The position numbers and the translations under genes are program-made. Shown piece by piece: positions 3,539 to 17,874 of a stretch of 64,000 nucleotides of DNA. Positions within the stretch are counted from its first letter, which is position 1; every line of letters starts with the position of its first letter. Origin of the DNA: an uncultured Alphaproteobacteria bacterium (GTDB lineage Bacteria > Pseudomonadota > Alphaproteobacteria > RF32 > CAG-239); contig CALXTV010000005.1 of the NCBI GenBank assembly GCA_944391505.1, positions 5,033-69,032 on the forward strand, written 5' to 3'. Below the pieces are notes generated by a model. That model worked only from the letters and a program-made list of their open reading frames with translations, did not search any database and had not been told where the DNA came from.

Positions 3539-3545
3539 AAAACTC

Positions 3546-3582
3546 GTATAGTGGTCAACTCGTACAGAAACATCGGGGTAAA
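3546..3582 (+). repeat. 37-bp direct repeat, copy 1 (gtatagtggtcaactcgtacagaaacatcggggtaaa)
   Basis: Exact duplicate of 3776-3812. It contains the internal sub-repeat aactcgtaYa twice. Confidence 0.8.
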
Positions 3583-3775
3583 ATTTTTAGTCACGTACTT
3601 TTTTGACTCAGGAACCTAAGCTCGCTGTGGTCGCTGTTGCTTCCTGGCTCGCGTAAGGTTTTCTGAGATGTTGCAGATAAAAAAGCAACACTGGTTGCTT
3701 TTTTACTTAGCCATTGCTCAAAAAATTTTCCCCTTGTTTCTTACTATTTGACTCACTCTTCGAGTTTTTTAATTT

Positions 3776-3812
3776 GTATAGTGGTCAACTCGTACAGAAA
3801 CATCGGGGTAAA
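3776..3812 (+). repeat. 37-bp direct repeat, copy 2
   Basis: Identical to 3546-3582. The two copies are separated by 193 bp of AT-rich sequence containing TTGACT boxes and an A6-hairpin-T6 element. Confidence 0.8.
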
Positions 3813-4019
3813 TAGTTAAACTCTTCATAATTGTATTTAGCCAAAAACAAAGAGCCTCTCATTATATTTTGACTTATTATGAGAAGTAAGTTAACATATA
3901 TTTGATAGGTGTGATGTGAACAGCAATTGGCAGGTCTTATATCTGCTCTTTGCCGAAGTTTCTGCGCACCTCCGCCTTCGCAGGCGCCGTCCCTTATATT
4001 AACTTGTCCGAGGTGTGCC

Positions 4020-6323
4020 ATGGCTCGTGTTCATCTGTTCTTTTCTATCGTTTTGGCCAGCGGTGCTTTTTTTGCCGCGGCCGATGTTTCGGAGGCTGAA
4101 CAAAGCCTGCCGCTTACCTTGTCGGTTAATACACACACAAATACATTATCCACACCCCTGACGGCGTCTGCGTCTCTTTTTGCCGATTTGAAAAATTCTT
4201 ATCAGACTGTCGGCGTTTGCTTTATCGGTTTTGGCGATTGTATGGAAGATGCCGGTTTTGGCAGGGGCGGTGATGATTATTCGCTGGATACGGCCTCTCA
4301 ATGCAAAAACGAGGGATATGTTCTCAACAACTGCAATTCCGTTCAATCCCCCAAAGATTATTGCCCGTATAACAAGTCTTATGTTTCCGGATGTAAATGT
4401 GCGTCTAACCTTATAACCTGTCCGGCAGGGCAAGTCGGTGTGGGTGATGCCTGCGAGGGAAAGTACGCTTCCTGCAAATGCGACCCTAATCTTATAAGCT
4501 GCGCTTCCAACCAGACCGGACAGGGGGCAAGTTGCGGCGGCAAATATCAGTCCTGCGTCTGCAAGTCGGAATATCAATATAATTCATCAAACTGTACATC
4601 GCCGCGTTCGCTGACCGGTGCCAGCTGCGGCGGCAAGTATACGGGCTGCTCGTGTCCGGGAGGGATAACCAGTCTGCCTTACGGATGCGAGGAATATTAT
4701 GCGTCGCCCTGCAATTCCGTCTGTAAGAAAGCTTATGTGGACAACTGCAGGAATCGTACGGCGGTCAGTACACCGTACGGCTGCCAGACTTATTGGTCTG
4801 ACTGTTCTTCCAAATGTCAGAAGGCTTACCCGGACAACTGCCGGAATCGTACGGCCGCAACTTGTGCTTTTGGCTGTCAGACTTATTGGAGCGATTGTCA
4901 GTCGAAGTGCCAGACCTGCAAGACCGATAACTGTGCCAACCGAACCGCCGTTAATGCGCCATACGGTTGCCAGACTTATTGGTCAGACTGTGCTTCCAAG
5001 TGTCAGACGGCCTATGCCGACAACTGCCACAACCGTACGGCGGTCAGTACACCGTACGGCTGTCAGACTTATTGGTCTGATTGTACTTCCAAATGCCAGA
5101 CGGCTTATGCAGACAACTGTCGGAATCGTTATGTCAATAATGAGCAACAGGTGGCAATTTTCGGCTGTGCTAAGTATTTCGACGATTGTCCGACCAAATG
5201 TCAAATGCCTAATCCGACAAGCTGTACCTATGCCGCGCGAACGGCTCATCCGGAGGCCATTGTGGTCGGGACGAATGAAGAGCTCAGGACTGCGGCGGTT
5301 TCCGGAGAGAAAATTTACCTGAGCAGTGATTTAGATATATATACAAATTTTGAAATTAAAAACGGTACGGCAATCCATTCGGCCTATGAACTGGCGCCGA
5401 AATATTGTCTGGAAAAAGGATGGGGCGGTATATGGAATATTTATGAAGGAACCAAGATTAATGTTCCTTTATATAGTGCCGGGTTAGATGTTATGGGAAG
5501 TTTCAGTTTTTCAAAAGATATTAAGTTAAATTCTTTGTATTTTGGTGCACCGCCTTTGGGAATATCCGAAGAAACCGAAATTAGCATTACTTCTGAAAAT
5601 GATGCCAAAATTCAAAGTTATAACTTAGGTGGTTCGCTTGAGATTTTGAATGATTCGTTGAAGTCGATTTTTATTGATAATCTTGTCTGGGTCTCGACTT
5701 TGCGGCTTGATTTTATTTCAAACGAAGATCTGACGGTGACTGTGAGAAAATCTGGAGAATTTGATTCTCTTAATTTGAGTGGGGGACCGGGAAAGTTTGT
5801 TCTGGAAGACGGAACGTTTAATATTAGGGGTAATATGATTATTAACTCTATTCAGCCTCCTTATTTAGGCGACGGTATCGAAGTTTTGTTTAAAAATGCC
5901 AATGTTAATTTGCGTGACCTTGAGATGCAGTCAAATTCGGAAATCGTGCTGGATAATTCCACTGTTGATGCGAATAATAGCTTGGGAACTTATTTGGATT
6001 ATTCTAACCTTTTCTATGACAACTCTGTGCCGACGGGAGCAATCCGCTTTAAGAACGGCAGTAAATGGCTTAATATGTCCCATATTAGCATACACGACCT
6101 TTACGGCGGTGGATATGGCGTGGAGTTTGTTTTTGAACCGAACAGCCATTCTTATATTGAGACGTACAAAGGGTTTGGCACTTGTCAATACGGAAAGATA
6201 TCCGCTCAAGATCCGACGCAGGAAGCAAAATTGCAAAGTTACGGCGCTGCTACGACGGAGCTATGTTTCATACCTGATTATTATAATAATTATACCAAGC
6301 AAATTAATATAAAAGTAGAATAA
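4020..6323 (+). CDS. secreted cysteine-rich repeat protein (767 aa) with a Cys-free beta-rich C-terminal domain
   Basis: The in-frame ATG at 4020 begins a signal peptide, MARVHLFFSIVLASGAFFAAADVS. Residues 110-240 carry about 23-aa C.C..NLI.C...Q.G.G..C.GKY.SC repeats. Residues 240-400 carry five repeats of about 30 aa, NCRNRTAVSTPYGCQTYWSDCxSKCQxAY. The ~375-aa C-terminus is cysteine-free. I recognise no homolog by eye. Confidence 0.75.
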   Translation: MARVHLFFSIVLASGAFFAAADVSEAEQSLPLTLSVNTHTNTLSTPLTASASLFADLKNSYQTVGVCFIGFGDCMEDAGFGRGGDDYSLDTASQCKNEGYVLNNCNSVQSPKDYCPYNKSYVSGCKCASNLITCPAGQVGVGDACEGKYASCKCDPNLISCASNQTGQGASCGGKYQSCVCKSEYQYNSSNCTSPRSLTGASCGGKYTGCSCPGGITSLPYGCEEYYASPCNSVCKKAYVDNCRNRTAVSTPYGCQTYWSDCSSKCQKAYPDNCRNRTAATCAFGCQTYWSDCQSKCQTCKTDNCANRTAVNAPYGCQTYWSDCASKCQTAYADNCHNRTAVSTPYGCQTYWSDCTSKCQTAYADNCRNRYVNNEQQVAIFGCAKYFDDCPTKCQMPNPTSCTYAARTAHPEAIVVGTNEELRTAAVSGEKIYLSSDLDIYTNFEIKNGTAIHSAYELAPKYCLEKGWGGIWNIYEGTKINVPLYSAGLDVMGSFSFSKDIKLNSLYFGAPPLGISEETEISITSENDAKIQSYNLGGSLEILNDSLKSIFIDNLVWVSTLRLDFISNEDLTVTVRKSGEFDSLNLSGGPGKFVLEDGTFNIRGNMIINSIQPPYLGDGIEVLFKNANVNLRDLEMQSNSEIVLDNSTVDANNSLGTYLDYSNLFYDNSVPTGAIRFKNGSKWLNMSHISIHDLYGGGYGVEFVFEPNSHSYIETYKGFGTCQYGKISAQDPTQEAKLQSYGAATTELCFIPDYYNNYTKQINIKVE
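4731..5200 (+). repeat. intragenic tandem DNA repeat (about 90-bp unit, 5 copies) encoding the Cys-rich module
   Basis: Near-identical copies of gcttatg..gacaactgc.gaatcgtacggc...ccgtacggctgccagacttattggtctgactgt...aaatgtcaga. Confidence 0.8.
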
Positions 6324-6327
6324 AAAA

Positions 6328-6358
6328 ACAGGCCCTGCAAGTGATTGCAGGGCTTTCC
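6328..6358. terminator. bidirectional hairpin terminator between the Cys-rich gene and uvrB
   Basis: GCCCTGCAAGTGATTGCAGGGC palindrome flanked by an A-run and a T-rich tract. Confidence 0.45.
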
Positions 6359-6368
6359 GTTGAATTGG

Positions 6369-8351
6369 CTACAGGTTTTTCATGGCCAGTCGTTCAAGTT
6401 CTTTGAGCTTGTCGCGATAGACGACGGCCGTTTCAAACTCAAGATTGGCGGCGGCTTCTTTCATCAGTTTGGTATATTCTTTGATTTTTTTCTCAACGTT
6501 TTTGATTTCTTCAATATCTTTGGTGTCGTCTTTGACAAAGTCGGTTTCGGTCATTTCTTTTAGGGTGGCCGAAATGCTTTTTTTGATGGTTTTCGGGGTA
6601 ATGCCGTGTTCGGCATTGTATTTCATCTGTTTTTCGCGGCGGCGGCGCGTTTCGTCGAGCGCCTGTTTGATGGAGCCGGTTATTTTGTCGGCGTACAGAA
6701 TGACTTTGCCTTCGGCGTTGCGGGCCGCACGACCGATTGTCTGAATCAGCGAGCGGGTCGAACGCAGAAAGCCTTCCTTGTCGGCGTCAAGAATGGCCAC
6801 CAACGAACATTCCGGAATATCCAGGCCTTCGCGCAAAAGGTTGATGCCGACCAGCACGTCGAAAACGCCGAGGCGTAAATCTCTGATGATTTCAATACGC
6901 TCGAGCGTGTCAATGTCGGAGTGCAGATAGCGGACTTTTATGCCGTTGTCGTTTAAATATTCGGTCAGGTCTTCGGCCATTTTCTTGGTCAGTGTCGTTA
7001 CCAGAATACGTTCGCCTTTGGCGACAACCTTGCGGCATTCTTCCATGAGGTCGTCAATCTGGTTTTCTACCGGGCGCACAACACATACCGGGTCGGCCAG
7101 CCCGGTCGGGCGGATGACCTGTTCGACAAAGGTGCCGCCGCTTTGCTCAAGCTCCCAGTCGCCGGGGGTGGCGGAAACGAAAATTGTCTGGCCGCGCATG
7201 GCATTCCATTCGTCAAATTTGAGCGGGCGGTTGTCGACGCAGGACGGCAGGCGGAAACCATAAGCGGCCAAAGTCGATTTGCGGTTATAGTCGCCGCGGA
7301 ACATTCCACCGATTTGCGGTATGGAAATATGGCTCTCGTCAATGAAAATGATGGCGTTCGGCGGCAGATATTCAAACAGGGTCGGCGGCGGCGCACCGGC
7401 CGGACGTCCGGTTAGGTAGCGCGAGTAGTTTTCAATGCCTTTGCAATGTCCGGTCGCTTCAAGCATTTCAAGATCAAACCGGGTGCGTTGTTCCAGCCGT
7501 TGTGCTTCCAGCAGTTTGTTTTGACTTTTAAATTCCTCAAGGCGCTCTTTTAATTCTTTTTTGATGCCGACAATAGCCTGAGACAGAGCCGGGCGCGGCG
7601 TGACGTAGTGATTGGCCGGATAAACCGTGACTTCTTTCAGATCAACGGTTTTTTTGCCGGTCAGGGAATCGAACTCGCAGATGCTTTCAATCTCATCGCC
7701 GAAAAAGGAAATGCGCCAGGCACGGTCTTCGTAATGTGCCGGAAAAATATCCAGTATGTCGCCCTGAACCCGGAAGGTGCTGCGGACAAAATTCTGCTGA
7801 TTGCGCTCGTATTGCAGTTCGGCCAGGCGGCGGCAGACTTCCCGCGGGGCAATTTCATCGCCGACTTTTAGCGGAATGGTCATTTGCGAATAGGATTCAA
7901 CGTCGCCCAAGCCGTAAATGCAGGAAACCGAGGCAATGATAATGACGTCTTTGCTTTCCAGAATGTCACGGGTGGCCGCGTTGCGCATGCGGTCGATTTG
8001 TTCGTTGATGGCCGAATCTTTTTCAATATAGGTGTCGGTTTTGGGAACATAGGCTTCCGGCTGGTAATAGTCATAGTAGGAAACGAAATATTCGACATGG
8101 TTGTTCGGAAAAAATTCTTTCATTTCCGAGTAAAGCTGGGCCGCCAGAATTTTGTTCGGTGCCATAATCAGGGCGGGGCGCTTGCTTTGTTCAATGATTT
8201 TGGCCATGGTAAAGGTTTTGCCGCTGCCGGTAACCCCGAGCAGAACCTGATTTTTTTCGCCGTTTGCGATGCCTTCGCAGAGCTCCTTGATGGCTTCCGG
8301 CTGATCGCCCGCGGGAGCAAAGGGACTTTCAATTTTGAAATCACTGCTCAT
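6369..8351 (-). CDS. uvrB: excinuclease ABC subunit B
   Basis: [29 protein letters not shown]...; helicase motifs. The start was chosen at MSSDFK (8351). The ORF track extends to 8450, but that N-terminal extension is implausible. Confidence 0.95.
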
Positions 8352-10950
8352 TGTTTTTTGGGCCGTTGTTTTCCGTGTCTTCGTCCAAGTCGGCGAGCCG
8401 CAGCGAATCCGTATAGATTTTGGTAAAGTTGCTGAAAGCGGCAACGTCATTGACCATGCGGTCTATTGAGTTAAGGTCTATTTTATCGTCTTCAAGGCGT
8501 CCGGTCAGGATATTGAAGACGCTGTGATATTTTGTGTCTTTGAAGTAAGGCATGAAAGTATTGCGCAAACGTACGATAACGGTTTCTTTGCCGGATTTTT
8601 TCAAAGCTGTGGCCCAGTCGAGAATATAGTTAATCTGTTCTTCACTCAATGGCTGGCCGGGTGTCGGCTTTTCGACCAGATATTTGAGGTTGTCTGATGC
8701 GGGGCCCCATAATCCGGCGTTCCAGAATATTTCGCTTTTTAAGAGAATGGCGTTTTTGCTGTAGTCGTCTTTCAGCAGTTTGAGCGCTTCTTCCTGACGA
8801 TTGAGCGCGGTAAGCGCTTTGGCGCGGATGATTTTGCGCTGCAACGCCAAAGTCTGCGGAATGGCATCGCTTTGGGTATCGTCGAGCATAAGCAAAGTTT
8901 CGCCTTCTTTGTGGTTGAACAGATATATCAGAGCCAGGCGGGTGCCGATTTTTGCACGGTCAAGCGGTGTCATCGGAACGGTGCGCAACTGATTGGTCAG
9001 CAGGCTTTCGGCACGGTCAAGCAAATCAACGGCTACCAGCCGGTCGCTTAATTTCAGAATTATGGTGTTATATTGCGGGCTTTTAGGTGCCAGCCATTCA
9101 TAATCGTGGTACAAAGCCAGTGATTTCAGAGCCGGCAGATTGTCGGCTTCGTTATGAATATAGATGTTTTCAAACAAACGAACCATTCTGTCTTCAACGG
9201 CCGGTTTGTCTTCATAATCGGCATAGTTTTTCAGCTCCTGAAGCGTGCGGAGGGCATTGGCAAAATCTTTTTGACGGGCGTACATATCGGCCAGACCGTC
9301 AAGCAGGCTTAATTTGAAAGTTCTTTCACCCCAGGCATAGCGCAGGCGTTCAAACTCGCTGATAGCGTTGTCCAGCGGAAACAGATTTAATTTTAAGCCA
9401 AGCTCGACGATTTCTTTACGCGCCAATGAAGTATACTTAAGCGAATCGAGCGGCAATATCCGTCGGTATTCGTTAATTGCACTCATCGGCGATCCCTGCA
9501 ACACCAGCTTTTTTCCGGTCAGGTAGTGAACGGCGGGCACGAGGCGTCCCGGGTGACGGCTGTTTTTCAGAATATCAATAAAATTCTGCGTGGAGAGGTC
9601 GTCGCCGGCATTGAGCGCAACCTGGGCACCGACCAGAGCAATACGGTCTTTGATTTCGTCCGGATAGTCGCGAATAAGGGAGATGAAAGAAAGCAGAATA
9701 CCGCCATATTCATCTTTGTATTCAATTGCCGCTTCAGACAGAGTTCGCCAGAAAACGGCTTCGTTGTTTGTCGACAGGTGCCCGTATGAAAAGTCTTCGA
9801 CGGCCTGTTCGTAACGATTGGCCAGAAAGTTGGCTATACCGGAAAGTCCGTACAGGCGCTCGGATTGTGCCTCCGGTGCGCCGGAGGCTTTTATCTGGTT
9901 GATGATGCTCAGCGCATTTGTTCCCAATCCCCGCATGACATAGTATTTGGCAAGTTCCAGCCGGGTTTTATTTTTTTGTTCTTCCGGTGCGGCGGCAATG
10001 TCATCGCGTAACTGCTGTTCTGCTTCAATAAACGGTCGGCTCATCAGTTCGGCACTGATTGTTCCGGTCAGCGGAGAAAGCTCGTTTTCGTCCTGACCAA
10101 GCATGGCTTGACGTTTGAGGTAGTCGAGGTTATGGGATATGTTCAGACCCCGGTTGTATCCCTGAATCGAGATTCCGGTTGTTGCCCGGCTGACGACGAT
10201 GTCGTTAGTTTTGGATATGATGACAATCCCCTGATAAGATGCGAGAATATCCAAATCAGGATAAGTGTAGGGATGTTCAATTCCGACGCCGATGTCCAAA
10301 CTTGGGGCTGCGATGATGGTGTCGCCGATTTCCGGATCAAGCGTTGAGATGACGTTGCCTGTATTGGAAACCGGAACAAAGAGATATGGCTGTTTGCGGC
10401 TGTTGTATTGTGTGAAAGCCTGAAGGTAGCGGTGTTCTTCGTCAGGAAACGGCCTTTTCAGAATGTCGACGACCCAGAGCAAGCCTTCTTTACGAACGGT
10501 GTAATAAGTTCCTTCTTTGGGTTTTAGACGTAAAATAAGACCTTGATAATTCGGTATTTGTATCAGTTCATCAACCAGCGGTGCAGCGTTGGCTGCCAGC
10601 GCTTCGATATCAATGTTTTGCGAGTGGTCGAAAACAATCCACAGATAATCGCCGCGGTGGAAAACAGCCAAACCGACAGGAATGTTCCAGGGAAAGCTCA
10701 AGCTGACGCTTTGTTTTTCGTTGTTTTCCTGCGTCATTTGCGGCACCGCCATTTCGCTGCTGCTTGATCTTTTGGCTGTACTGCGGGTCTCAATCGGACG
10801 GATTTGTGCCGTGGAAACAGGTTCGACAGCCGCAGCGCTTCCAATGACCGAGGCAGGCGACGGCACAGGGAAAAAACAGGCAAAAACCAGCGTACAGAGT
10901 GCCATACGCCGGCCGACATTTTTTAATATATTTCTTGTCTTATTGCTCAA
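8341..10950 (-). CDS. large secreted TPR-like repeat protein, flagellar-cluster associated
   Basis: 869-aa ORF with a signal-like N-terminus and helical-repeat-rich (TPR-like) middle and C-terminal regions. Its last 11 bp overlap the uvrB start. Confidence 0.55.
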
Positions 10951-14019: not shown

Positions 14020-14790
14020 ATGTACATATGGGTTCTGCTGGCGACATTTATAGCAATTTTGTATTCGTTTAATCTGCCGACGCGTTCAGATATGCGCGAA
14101 ATTTATGTCGAACCACAAGCGGAGGCGATTGTCAGCAAAATGCTTTTGCAACATCGGGCGGCTGAAAATTATGCCAGGGATCTTGGTTATACGTCTTATT
14201 ATCCCGGAGAAGTCGATTTTGATCTGCTGTGTCGGATGAATTATCTTCCGTACGGTCTGGAAGGATGTAACCCTGCCGATACCAGCAAAATCGAGCGCAG
14301 GCAGGAAATTCATTCGCGGATATATTGTCTGGACGAAAGTTCGTCCGGTTATTCCAAATCGGTAACCGGCTGTCCGGGGAGCCCGAGCTGCTGTAGCAAA
14401 GATAATTCTTACAATTATGTCGTGACTTACGGCTGTGTGCCGCAGCGGTGGCGGAATATTAAGACCGGCAAGCCCAACAATGACCTGCTGAACGCAATAA
14501 AAAACACAGTCGGCGTCGGTGTTAATATCGGATATGCCGATTTTGAAGACAAAACGTTTACGCGGGTTTATGACGAGGCTGACAACAAGACCGTGCAGGA
14601 CAAATATACGATGCATCTGGTCGGACGGGAAATTGAATGGATCGGTATTCCCGAGTATGTGGTTAACGATACGGAAGGCGGCAGCGAATCTTTCAACCGG
14701 ATGTGCGTCGAACCTCTGAGGGACGACGAAGGAAATGTGGTTGAGCAACAGGGCTGTTCCTATTGTATGGTTTATATCACGCCGATTTAG
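14020..14790 (+). CDS. hypothetical membrane-anchored Cys-containing protein (256 aa)
   Basis: N-terminal TM helix (MYIWVLLATFIAILYSF) and 12 cysteines. It lies 7 bp upstream of the giant pilin-like gene and is probably co-transcribed with it. Confidence 0.5.
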   Translation: MYIWVLLATFIAILYSFNLPTRSDMREIYVEPQAEAIVSKMLLQHRAAENYARDLGYTSYYPGEVDFDLLCRMNYLPYGLEGCNPADTSKIERRQEIHSRIYCLDESSSGYSKSVTGCPGSPSCCSKDNSYNYVVTYGCVPQRWRNIKTGKPNNDLLNAIKNTVGVGVNIGYADFEDKTFTRVYDEADNKTVQDKYTMHLVGREIEWIGIPEYVVNDTEGGSESFNRMCVEPLRDDEGNVVEQQGCSYCMVYITPI

Positions 14791-14796
14791 GCGGAG

Positions 14797-17700
14797 ATGA
14801 GGAGAAAAATGATGTCGAAAAGCAGATTTGCAAAGCTGAATGAGCTGGGAAGCCTGATGGTCGAGGCGATGGCTATGCTTGCCCTCATTTCCATGGTTAC
14901 GCCGATTTTGTACCGGAAAGCTGCCGAAAGAACGACTGAATTGCAAGATATTAATGCGGCCGGACAGATGCGTAGCCTGATTAAGGCAGTAGACGATTAT
15001 GTCCGCGATAATTATAATGCCATTGTTGCCGGCGAGCGGGTTGAAAACAGTGCCAACAACTCGGTTAATTACAGCGATTTGGTCAGCGGTGGCAAAAAGA
15101 CGATTAACATTACGCATTTCCGCGACTATCTGCCTTACGGTTTTTTGGATTCTTCCGGAAATGTACAGGATACAAAGACTTTCAGCAAGGATTATAAGGT
15201 TGCGTTCAAATATACCGATGCGGGAGGGCGCAAGGCCGTAACCGCTTTTGTTGTGGCAGAACCAAAAGAAAAAGATGATTTTCCGATGCTGCGGGCATCG
15301 CGTATTGCGTCCATGGTCGGCACAAACGGCGGTTATGCTCAGGTCAGCGGAGGAAAGGTTACAGTTAACGGTGTGCAGGGTATTTGGACGATTGACAATA
15401 TGAACAATGAACTGGGAATTACGACGACCAACGGTTCAATCGTTACCTCTTCCGTTCAGCCCATTACGGAGGCCGGAGGTGGCGGCAACAACGAAAATTA
15501 TCTGTATCGTATAGATATGAGTGGCAACCCGTCAACGGCCAAGCTGAATCAGATGGAGGCAAATCTGAAACTCGGGGCGGACAACGGAACGCATCATAAC
15601 ATCACTAACGTCAACCAACTGATTATTTCGGCACAGAATCAGGCCAATTTTTCGGATAAAAGCAGCGGGAATGACGGTGCTTTGCTGATTGAAGGTACCG
15701 GCGGTGCTACAATCGGCGGCAATACGATTATCGGTGGAAGTTCGACGATTACGGGGACGTTGTCGGCGCTGGCTGATAAGTTCAGGGTTAATGAGGCCGG
15801 TCTGCAATATGGTGATTTGTTTACAGTTACCGAAACCAACCTGAAATACGGCAATAACGGCGACGTTATCAACGCCAGCAGTTCCAATCTGAATTTGCTG
15901 AACGGAAAAATTACGGTTGATGCGAACGATACAAAGATTGCCAACAAGACGACGATTGGAACGACTGGGACAGCAACGACTTCCGACTATCAGATGCTGG
16001 TCAAGGGCAATGCTGAAGTAACCGGAATATTGACGGCGGGAGAAGTTCGTACGCCTAAATTTAAATCCCTTACTTTGGATGCCGGTGCGACGACGTACAA
16101 CGGCCCTTGGAACTTGCATGTTGAATCGACAAAAGCCAGTTTGGCACAACCGGATTTCAACGTGGCGACGGATAAGTTGAAAATTACTTCTGCGGAATCG
16201 AGCATGAGAAATGCGACGGTTACGCTGAATGCAAATGACGTGGCTTCCGTTGTCCTTAATACAAGCGGTGCCGAAATCAGTTCGACGAATAACGTTAAGA
16301 TGCACGGCAATAATAGTGTTCATTTGTATACGGGGACAATGTCGCCTACATTGACAGCCGGCGAAGTTAGTATTCAGGATTCAATGTTCCGAGCAAACCG
16401 CAATACGGTTGCGATTAACTCCATCGTCAACAGCTTTACGGTCAGAAACACGGTCGGAGACAAGCTGGATCAGGCCGATATTGCCAATGCGGTAAGCCGG
16501 GTTCGCAATATGACTTTTCAGGCTGAAAATCCGGACGGTACCTCTGTCTTTTCAGTTAACCCGAAAACGGCCGGTTCGGAAACAATAAGTGCCAATGTGC
16601 GCACGGTTGACGTGCGTTCTGCCGGGTTGGTCATTGATTCATCGGACGGAAACACCAATCGCAGCGTTAATGCCAAGAACGGCGGCACGGCGACAACGCA
16701 GGCTTATACTTACATCGGCAAAGGCAGAATCGATGTTAAAGATAACGCCGCCAATAAGATTTTTGTCGTTGATGCCAGAGATGTAGACAAGTCTACGGCT
16801 AACCGCGGCAGCGTTTATGTCCGCAAAGGTGTTCTTGAGCTGGAATCCGGCTATGCTTCCAAATTGACCGATGCACAGGTTCAGGCGCAGGCAACTTCTA
16901 CGGCTAATGACAAGGGCTATGTGCGGGCGGACCGTTTCGTCTCCAACCGCAGTTGGACGAATCCTATACAGAGCGGTGTTCCGTCCGGGTTTAACCGTGG
17001 GGTTGTCTATGATGCATATCAGGTTAATCCGGCTTATACGTCGGTTATGCACGATATAAAACTGACCTCCAGAGGTGGAGCTCGTTTAAGTGACATTCTG
17101 CCGGATTTCATTAACAAAGGTATTTATGTGGTTGACAATACTTATCTGGAAACTTTTGGCAGCTGGGAAAATTCTTCGGGTTGTCCGAACCATACCAGCG
17201 GTAACAGCTGTCAGACGGTGGCTAACGGCTATGTGGCCAACAACCATACCGACTGGACGTCGCCGTGGTTGGGTGTGGTTCCGGCGCCGATGTGTCCGCC
17301 TGGATATGCCAAGGTTATTACGATTACACCGGCCGGTTTCGCCATGGCTCAAGCCGGTATTCCGGGAACCAGACAGCCCGGCAGAAAGCAGGATATCGTG
17401 ATTGTGAACTATCCGAAGAATCCGAATGAGGATTATTCAGCCAATCCGTCCGCAGCGCCAGTGCCGCTTTATTTCCAAAAGAGTACCTGGTTGCGTGCCA
17501 AGGTCTATACGCATGGCTCGGACAATACGTTTAAGGGTTGGAGTGCTATCATGGGCTTTATGTATCCTTACACGTACTATAAACAGTATATGGATGATTT
17601 GGGTTTGGGACTGAGCGGCAGTGACGCCATTGCCTGGAATCTGTTTCCGGTTTTCAGAAAGCAGTTGGAAGCTTATGCTACGGTTTATTGTTACTTTGAC

Positions 17701-17874
17701 CGCAAGGGTGGTTTGGGAACGATATTTAACTCGGATTTGGTAGATACAACTTATGATCAGTTGTCGAATTTCCGGGCGCCGATGAGCGGAAAAACACCAA
17801 GTGCAACAGGAAATGACAACGGTTACTTTAACCGTCTGAACGATCCGAATCTTAAATATACGGAACCGTGGTAA
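14797..17874 (+). CDS. giant (1025 aa) Asn/Thr/Gly-rich surface protein with a TadE/pseudopilin-like N-terminal segment
   Basis: The N-terminus, MMSKSRFAKLNELG|SLMVEAMAMLALISMVTPIL, has a Gly followed by a hydrophobic helix with Glu at +5. This matches the TadE-like/type IV pilin class-III signal pattern. The body has low complexity, with about 30% N/T/G/S. Confidence 0.55.
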   Translation: MRRKMMSKSRFAKLNELGSLMVEAMAMLALISMVTPILYRKAAERTTELQDINAAGQMRSLIKAVDDYVRDNYNAIVAGERVENSANNSVNYSDLVSGGKKTINITHFRDYLPYGFLDSSGNVQDTKTFSKDYKVAFKYTDAGGRKAVTAFVVAEPKEKDDFPMLRASRIASMVGTNGGYAQVSGGKVTVNGVQGIWTIDNMNNELGITTTNGSIVTSSVQPITEAGGGGNNENYLYRIDMSGNPSTAKLNQMEANLKLGADNGTHHNITNVNQLIISAQNQANFSDKSSGNDGALLIEGTGGATIGGNTIIGGSSTITGTLSALADKFRVNEAGLQYGDLFTVTETNLKYGNNGDVINASSSNLNLLNGKITVDANDTKIANKTTIGTTGTATTSDYQMLVKGNAEVTGILTAGEVRTPKFKSLTLDAGATTYNGPWNLHVESTKASLAQPDFNVATDKLKITSAESSMRNATVTLNANDVASVVLNTSGAEISSTNNVKMHGNNSVHLYTGTMSPTLTAGEVSIQDSMFRANRNTVAINSIVNSFTVRNTVGDKLDQADIANAVSRVRNMTFQAENPDGTSVFSVNPKTAGSETISANVRTVDVRSAGLVIDSSDGNTNRSVNAKNGGTATTQAYTYIGKGRIDVKDNAANKIFVVDARDVDKSTANRGSVYVRKGVLELESGYASKLTDAQVQAQATSTANDKGYVRADRFVSNRSWTNPIQSGVPSGFNRGVVYDAYQVNPAYTSVMHDIKLTSRGGARLSDILPDFINKGIYVVDNTYLETFGSWENSSGCPNHTSGNSCQTVANGYVANNHTDWTSPWLGVVPAPMCPPGYAKVITITPAGFAMAQAGIPGTRQPGRKQDIVIVNYPKNPNEDYSANPSAAPVPLYFQKSTWLRAKVYTHGSDNTFKGWSAIMGFMYPYTYYKQYMDDLGLGLSGSDAIAWNLFPVFRKQLEAYATVYCYFDRKGGLGTIFNSDLVDTTYDQLSNFRAPMSGKTPSATGNDNGYFNRLNDPNLKYTEPW

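Follow-up and report, generated by a model that had tools for sequence, protein, structure and literature searches.

A family of predicted secreted proteins with a cysteine-rich stalk and interchangeable, strain-variable heads in uncultured gut Alphaproteobacteria

Introduction

The beta-helix is the fold of type Va autotransporter passengers such as UpaB of uropathogenic Escherichia coli (PDB 6bea), Ag43, pertactin, Hap and Vag8, and parallel beta-helices are also present in pectin-lyase-like enzymes and phage tailspike depolymerases (GH28, PL1, PL3, PL6, PL9, P22-type). Classical autotransporter passengers are poor in cysteine. The Lcl adhesins (DUF1566, PF07603) of Legionella and Leptospira have a related design, i.e., a repetitive stalk with a C-terminal binding head. 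In the present study a gene of 767 codons is described, which is located in a stretch of 64,000 nucleotides (the window) of an uncultured Alphaproteobacteria bacterium (RF32; CAG-239; assembly GCA_944391505.1, contig CALXTV010000005.1, positions 5,033 to 69,032). Its product is a predicted secreted protein with a cysteine-rich stalk and a C-terminal head that was modelled as a beta-helix. We lean towards the view that it is adhesin-like, an exported disulfide-bonded stalk that displays a variable binding head.

The protein differs from these described systems in several respects. Unlike the type Va passengers, it has no C-terminal barrel translocator and ends about 40 amino acids (aa) past the helix, and the helix is C-terminal to a cysteine-rich stalk, while it is N-terminal in autotransporters. 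In contrast to the GH28, PL and tailspike proteins, it has no match to these families, no conserved acidic catalytic residues and no trimerisation or particle-binding domain. The Lcl_C domain of the Lcl adhesins is also missing, the stalk is built of cysteine-rich modules instead of being collagen-like, and the matches of paralogues stayed below the Pfam gathering score, while one precomputed PF07603 match was found among the family homologues. Tandem modules of 27–31 aa with four to six conserved cysteines are likewise known from EGF-like proteins, from the cysteine-rich domains (CRDs) of TNFR and from the cysteine-rich variant surface proteins (VSPs) of protists. However, no significant sequence or structure match to these eukaryotic stalks was obtained for the repeats, the host is Gram-negative, and the likeness is one of design only, including a faint structural likeness to CD40 CRDs (Foldseek E about 2). 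A literature search yielded no paper on this stalk-and-head family; a preprint from 2026 (10.64898/2026.06.07.730663) deals with cysteine-rich repeats in the context of eukaryotic horizontal gene transfer and treats different proteins.

Results

Signal Peptide and Cysteine-Rich Stalk

An initial annotation, which had been made from the sequence without database searches, had proposed that the 767-aa protein is secreted. This was supported by its N-terminus (MARVHLFFSIVLASGAFFAAA, followed by DV), which comprises a basic n-region, a hydrophobic core of 15 residues and an AxA cleavage site (features are compiled in Table 1). A comparable hydrophobic segment was found in 112 of 115 homologues, at a median distance of 52 aa before a conserved CFxG motif. 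A lipobox of the form [LVI][ASTVI][GAS]C is absent, as the signal peptide ends with AAA before DV and the first cysteine is residue 67, preceded by VGV, and thus a lipoprotein was ruled out. In the full-length AlphaFold2 (AF2) model the predicted local distance difference test score (pLDDT) was below 50 over residues 1–87. The segment between signal peptide and stalk, which is conserved in the family, is a candidate region for anchoring or sorting.

The stalk consists of small cysteine-rich modules of several types. The cysteines of the N-terminal Cys domain are invariant over 120 homologues (the top 120 of at least 515, which were also used for the cysteine statistics and for counting C-terminal classes), and the domain was modelled with a pLDDT of about 89. 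It is followed by three type-A units of 27, 27 and 31 aa (delimited by C125, C152, C179 and C210), which are near-invariant in the family and had pLDDT values of 86–90. Such cysteine-rich units had been recognized before, but with a length of about 23 aa, which was too short. Behind a degenerate first type-B unit, Tandem Repeats Finder (TRF) detected an array from 4740 to 5119 with a period of 93, 4.1 copies and 69% matches. The tandem array of the initial annotation thus exists, and its unit size, given as about 30 aa and 90 bp, is in fact 31 aa and 93 bp. The five copies are not near-identical, as had been claimed. Four are canonical (aa 241–271, 272–302, 303–333 and 334–364; 4740–5111), the one at 365–399 is divergent and carries a 4-aa insertion, and unit 2 has an additional cysteine pair. 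The canonical copies share 68–87% of their residues and 62–87% of their nucleotides, and the same codon is used at just 43–81% of the identical residues. This divergence of the DNA, with many synonymous differences, indicates that the repeats are old and have been held by selection at the protein level. In the full-length model residues 88–240 reached a pLDDT of about 87–90 and the type-B units 62–84, each of the latter being modelled as a short helix and a beta-hairpin. Across the family the number of type-B units ranges from 1 to 8.

It had been proposed to look for a disulfide pattern, and such a pattern was found. The number of cysteines was even in 107 of the 120 homologues (binomial p 1.5e-19). 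An extra cysteine in a loop occurred in 97 of 303 canonical type-B units, and in all 97 of them a partner was present three residues past the fourth cysteine. Only three units carried one of the two without the other (Fisher p 1e-76, a value that overstates the case because the units are not phylogenetically independent). This is what a third disulfide predicts. The cysteines seem to behave as obligate pairs, which fits the generic class of extracytoplasmic disulfide-rich repeat proteins. Together with the signal peptide, the paired cysteines argue for a folded protein in an oxidising compartment, i.e., the periplasm or the outside. When the PDB sequences were searched with a stalk profile, no match was obtained.

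The C-Terminal Head

An AF2 model of the head was calculated from a six-sequence alignment and reached a pLDDT of 86.8 and a predicted template modelling score of 0.88. It shows long stacked strands and is nearly all beta, in agreement with the earlier expectation of a beta-rich domain. The modelled fold is a right-handed beta-helix, and it is thus a known and not a novel fold. The best structural match was the passenger of UpaB, which binds glycosaminoglycans and fibronectin (PMC6488583), at a sequence identity of 8%. Searches of Pfam, NCBIfam, PHROGs and the PDB sequences with the 767-aa protein did not reveal any match and thus no characterised family, and an exhaustive phmmer search with the head against 1.84 billion representatives retrieved only four clusters, all of them from its own family. 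The earlier statement that no known domain is present therefore holds for the sequence libraries and fails for the fold of the C-terminal part. The latter had also been described as cysteine-free and rich in Asn, Ser and Leu. Its 373 residues contain four cysteines (C402, C463, C722 and C749), so that it is cysteine-poor, and the three named residues do account for 8–10% each, but so do Gly and Ile.

The Protein Belongs to a Multigene Family

A full-length search retrieved at least 515 homologues, and gut metagenomes are the source of nearly all of them; those with a name are few and belong to metagenome-assembled genomes (MAGs) of Alphaproteobacteria. Matches over the whole length were few (P0002, P0003, P0022 and P0036), and most spanned only the N-terminal 40–50%. 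Within the first 240 residues every cysteine was invariant or nearly so over the 120 homologues, while at least 12 unrelated classes of C-termini were found among them. The beta-helix head of the query was present in five proteins, and a distant variant of it in P0071. A class ending with VRPVLEF comprised 27 of the 120 proteins, and four of nine tails of this class that were tested had a weak likeness to Lcl_C (best E 2.7e-6, sub-threshold). Membership of the query in the Lcl_C family (DUF1566, PF07603) was rejected, because the domain is absent from it and the paralogue heads remained below the threshold. The other classes include several short cysteine-rich tails. In addition, some members have a third, EGF-like repeat type, with a weak EGF_MSP1_1 match in 9 of 79 (best E 1e-4).

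A scan with one genome per species identified 62 family loci in 13 MAGs, all from uncultured gut Alphaproteobacteria, including Ca. Scatocola faecigallinarum, Ca. Scatocola faecipullorum, "Azospirillum sp. 51_20" and further bins. Single genomes contained 13, 13, 9, 6 and 6 loci with different heads, and these numbers are likely underestimates, as many of the loci are at contig ends. The neighboring genes vary between the loci, and no recurring gene for secretion or for a partner protein was found. Mosaics occur among the members: in P0007 the first 120 columns are 100% identical to P0006, and the 200 columns that follow are 100% identical to P0004. Judged from these sequences, the 767-aa protein is a member of a lineage-restricted multigene family with a constant signal peptide and stalk and interchangeable heads, and not a singleton, as which it had initially been treated.

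In other genomes adjacent tandem pairs of family members with differing heads were sometimes observed (L005, L012 and L017). The window itself contains one additional gene related to the family, a secreted mini-paralogue of 130 aa. Behind its signal peptide it has the pattern DDYxL...C..EGY...C......CPY......CC...CGG.YKC, and it belongs to a small family of conserved 116–142-aa proteins from the same kind of metagenomes.

Variation Between Strains at the rlmH-uvrB Locus

DNA sequences of six conspecific alleles were compared, i.e., that of the window and five more (L065 and L071–L074). Their flanking DNA is 95–100% identical, and the UvrB proteins are 99.7–100% identical. Compared with L065, codons 1–240 do not contain a single nucleotide difference, while the identity falls to 71–83% in the repeats and the head. 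The synonymous divergence (dS) of the repeat region from L065 is 1.6 and the non-synonymous divergence (dN) is 0.09, indicating that this segment has been replaced. Among the closer alleles, dN/dS was 0–0.16 in the stalk versus 0.7–0.9 in the head. Variable sites make up 2–4% of residues 1–240, 16% of the repeats and 21–40% of the head. In every allele the reading frame is intact. Six alleles do not suffice to distinguish between imported recombinant blocks, relaxed constraint and diversifying selection as sources of the head variation.

Variation of the repeat number had been predicted, and it was indeed observed, although the repeats have diverged. Two alleles encode 736 aa and are short by exactly 93 bp (L073 and L074). 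In L073 units 3 and 4 are fused into a hybrid that is joined within the shared stretch CAGACTTATTGGTC, while unit 3 is intact in L074. The different junctions indicate two independent unequal exchanges. A second cluster of the family has length forms of 604, 572 and about 542 aa.

Another repeat-length polymorphism was noticed a few kb from the gene. Upstream of the first base of the window an acidic, cysteine-free protein rich in Pro, Glu and Val is encoded (L067 2366–4498, L069 1838–4066), which has 711 versus 743 aa due to an exact tandem duplication of 32 aa. The two strains are otherwise identical.

Gene, Locus and Neighboring Genes

The initial annotation of an open reading frame (ORF) of 767 codons was confirmed: it is intact, GAGGTG stands before the ATG and a terminator hairpin follows the stop codon. 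A TTG at 3927 would be an alternative start of a longer version. The ATG at 4020 was preferred because of the GAGGTG upstream of it, the start of the signal peptide and the same start in close homologues. As had been stated, the gene is flanked by rlmH (SPOUT_MTase, E 5e-42) and uvrB, the latter being convergent with it. At least six contigs, which stem from different samples and were built by different assemblers, encode the identical 767-aa protein, each time between rlmH and uvrB, and it was therefore concluded that the repeats are real and not an artefact of the assembly.

Table 1. Sequence features of the 767-aa gene, its surroundings and the mini-paralogue in the window.
Feature	Residues	Position	Strand	Basis
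Upstream intergenic indel polymorphism		3541–3812	+	42-nt direct repeats, allele comparison
Shine-Dalgarno sequence GAGGTG, 4 nt before ATG		4010–4015	+	direct sequence reading
CDS, 767 aa and stop codon	1–767	4020–6323	+	ORF list and translation; identical product on at least six independent contigs
Sec-type signal peptide, predicted cleavage between AAA and D, without lipobox	1–21	4020–4082	+	sequence, hydrophobicity scan, homologue conservation
N-terminal segment, disordered in the model, motifs THTxTP and VCFxGxGDC (C67, C74)	22–87	4083–4280	+	homologue alignment, AF2
N-terminal Cys domain, DTxxQCxNEG...NCNSxQ...CPYN..Y..GC	88–124	4281–4391	+	homologue alignment, AF2, mini-paralogue
Three type-A units, CxCx6Cx10Cx6	125–151, 152–178, 179–209	4392–4646	+	sequence, alignment, AF2
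Degenerate first type-B unit, CSCPGGITSLPYGCEEYYASPCNSVCKKAYV	210–240	4647–4739	+	sequence; Cys and Tyr invariant across the family
Five type-B units, 31 aa / 93 bp, DNCxNRx6YGCx6Cx2KCx5	241–399	4740–5216	+	TRF, pairwise identity, AF2
C-terminal head, predicted right-handed parallel beta-helix, hypervariable between strains	400–767	5217–6320	+	AF2
GC-rich hairpin separating the stop codons of the gene and the convergent uvrB, bidirectional terminator		6332–6353		sequence
Secreted mini-paralogue of 130 aa, N-terminal Cys domain only		23323–23715	-	tblastn E 3.6e-5 to aa 85–125

The spacer between rlmH and the gene is polymorphic. In the window two 42-nt direct repeats (3541–3582 and 3771–3812) flank a segment of 188 bp, which contains a terminator-like hairpin at about 3679–3705. 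The resulting extra 230 bp are also present in L067 and L069 (spacer of 481 bp), while L071–L074 have a single copy of the 42-nt repeat and a spacer of 251 bp. The contigs L065, L066, L068 and L070, which carry the 767-aa gene, start inside this polymorphic region. A search of the region upstream of the gene against Rfam gave no match, and no further copy of the 230-bp segment was found in the window. The indel is probably not part of the function of the 767-aa protein.

Several further ORFs in the window were noted. One of 1025 aa (14797–17874, plus strand) has no Pfam match and has a class III prepilin-like N-terminus (LNELG, followed by SLMVEAMAMLALISMV, with Glu at +5). Behind this signal it has a long region rich in Asn, Thr, Ser and Gly, which is probably beta-rich, and the product may be a giant pilin-like protein. 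It adjoins flagellar genes, i.e., those for FliM, FliL, a DUF6468 protein and an MgtE_N-like protein on the opposite strand. An ORF of 869 aa (8341–10950, minus strand; 854 aa called on related contigs) follows directly downstream of uvrB in the same orientation, and a cysteine-containing ORF of 256 aa is present at 14020–14790 (plus strand). Neither of these two had a Pfam match, and both are located in the neighborhood of the flagellar genes.

Discussion

The combination of a stalk with a swappable head is the build of modular adhesins and variable surface proteins. The following sequence of events is proposed for the 767-aa protein. After cleavage of the signal peptide, about 44 cysteines of the N-terminal half would be oxidised in the periplasm, yielding a rod of small modules (the N-terminal Cys domain, three type-A and six type-B units) that would bear the 370-aa right-handed beta-helix at its distal, C-terminal end. 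The constant part, consisting of the 60-residue N-terminal segment and the stalk and common to the family, would presumably serve export and/or attachment. The head would be the specificity module that touches a ligand, most likely a glycan or a protein of the host or of another microbe. Unrelated head domains would be swapped among the paralogues, alleles would recombine, and weak or diversifying selection would act on the head, which together would account for its diversity. The length of the stalk would be altered through unequal recombination between 93-bp units.

Several results speak against this proposal, and its weakest point is the topology. The 767-aa protein lacks an autotransporter barrel, a TPS (two-partner secretion) domain and a lipobox, and neither an RTX signal nor any of the known C-terminal sorting signals is present. 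Conserved neighboring genes were not found at the family loci. In the absence of the known devices for passage or anchoring, a location at the surface or outside the cell is suggested by the evolutionary behavior of the family. Foldseek did not yield a significant match, although proteins of the same fold class were ranked. The variation of the head is not enriched in loops or in polar residues, and its dN/dS below 1 could reflect relaxed constraint in place of diversifying selection. As the fold is common to many polysaccharide lyases and hydrolases, it alone cannot tell binding from catalysis.

The last point leads to the possibility that the head is a secreted pectin-lyase-like lyase or glycoside hydrolase on a cysteine-rich spacer, which degrades mucin, capsules or dietary glycans. 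This was considered unlikely. Even at E<=10 there was no match to a GH or PL family in Pfam, NCBIfam or PHROGs. The five heads that can be aligned do not share an invariant Asp, and of the seven charged or His residues that are invariant among these five none is left once the distant P0071 head is included. The conservation of the residues therefore argues against a conserved catalytic site. Furthermore, the best match in structure is the passenger of an adhesin and not an enzyme, the paralogues carry unrelated and non-enzyme-like heads on the same stalk, and the strong turnover of the sequence between strains would be unusual for the scaffold of an active site. An equally doubtful alternative takes up the missing export signals and the modest dN/dS: the protein could be a spacer or scaffold of the periplasm or envelope that never reaches the outside, and the head could vary because it is under relaxed constraint. 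However, up to 13 paralogous loci per genome with different heads, the recombination mosaics and a sharp peak of divergence that is confined to the head between strains with otherwise 98–100% identity are hallmarks of proteins that meet an external, changing partner, and one of the head classes is weakly similar to the adhesion domain Lcl_C.

The initial annotation had left the choice between an adhesin-like and a toxin-like architecture, and only the former is retained. A conserved N-terminus, variable C-termini, many paralogues and recombination do resemble polymorphic toxin systems, in which variable C-terminal toxins (or a bacteriocin activity) would reach competitors by means of a conserved N-terminal part for trafficking. 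Nevertheless, a toxin was judged to be very improbable: in none of the heads was a toxin domain recognised, the head described here is a predicted beta-helix of 370 aa, and downstream of the gene there is no small immunity-like ORF but a terminator and the convergent uvrB. The neighbors of other family members are unrelated, and associated genes of a secretion system were not found.

The assignment of the gene to known systems was also attempted. The beta-helix passenger of a type Va autotransporter is present in the model, but the C-terminal 12-stranded PF03797 barrel is absent (no Pfam match at E<=10), and this assignment was rejected. A TpsA protein of two-partner secretion was rejected because neither Pfam nor NCBIfam revealed a TPS domain and the neighbors are rlmH and uvrB. 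The target of a diversity-generating retroelement was rejected as well, as tblastn did not detect a second copy of any part of the gene in the window except for the mini-paralogue and the variation extends over the entire 1.1-kb head and the repeats.

Returning to the adhesin-like stalk and head, what seems to be new is the family with its stalk modules and its N-terminal segment, for all of which Pfam, NCBIfam, PHROGs and the PDB sequences do not contain a match. A stalk with a swappable head that is encoded by many genes and varies between strains is a known kind of design. The implementation is new in that a Gram-negative bacterium has a stalk rich in disulfides in the style of eukaryotes, the beta-helix is not accompanied by a type V translocator, and the family is confined to an uncultured gut clade. 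It is tempting to speculate, although we would sooner doubt than assume it, that the family is a variable surface-protein system analogous to the VSPs of protists, with a novel disulfide-knotted stalk of eukaryotic style, a new sorting or anchoring segment and interchangeable heads. If this were true, the heads (beta-helix, Lcl_C-like and small cysteine-rich knots) would turn over between strains, driven by host immunity (immunoglobulin A), phages or shifting ligands. Dispersed loci, up to 13 or more in a genome, would recombine with one another, and the export would match neither a type V nor a type I nor a lipoprotein pathway.

For the stalk and the N-terminal segment, new domain families would have to be set up, and the lack of a known signal for export across the outer membrane may point to an unrecognised route of surface display in Gram-negative bacteria. 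The head, which is hypervariable while its chromosomal locus is fixed, could be used as a marker for strain typing. To our knowledge, it is not known how this uncultured clade of gut Alphaproteobacteria makes contact with its host or with other microbes. The members of the stalk-and-head family, for which as many as 13 loci were counted in one MAG (some matches come from assemblies of about 1.9 Mb), are prime candidates for determinants of colonisation or specificity, and they are candidate targets of host antibodies or phages.

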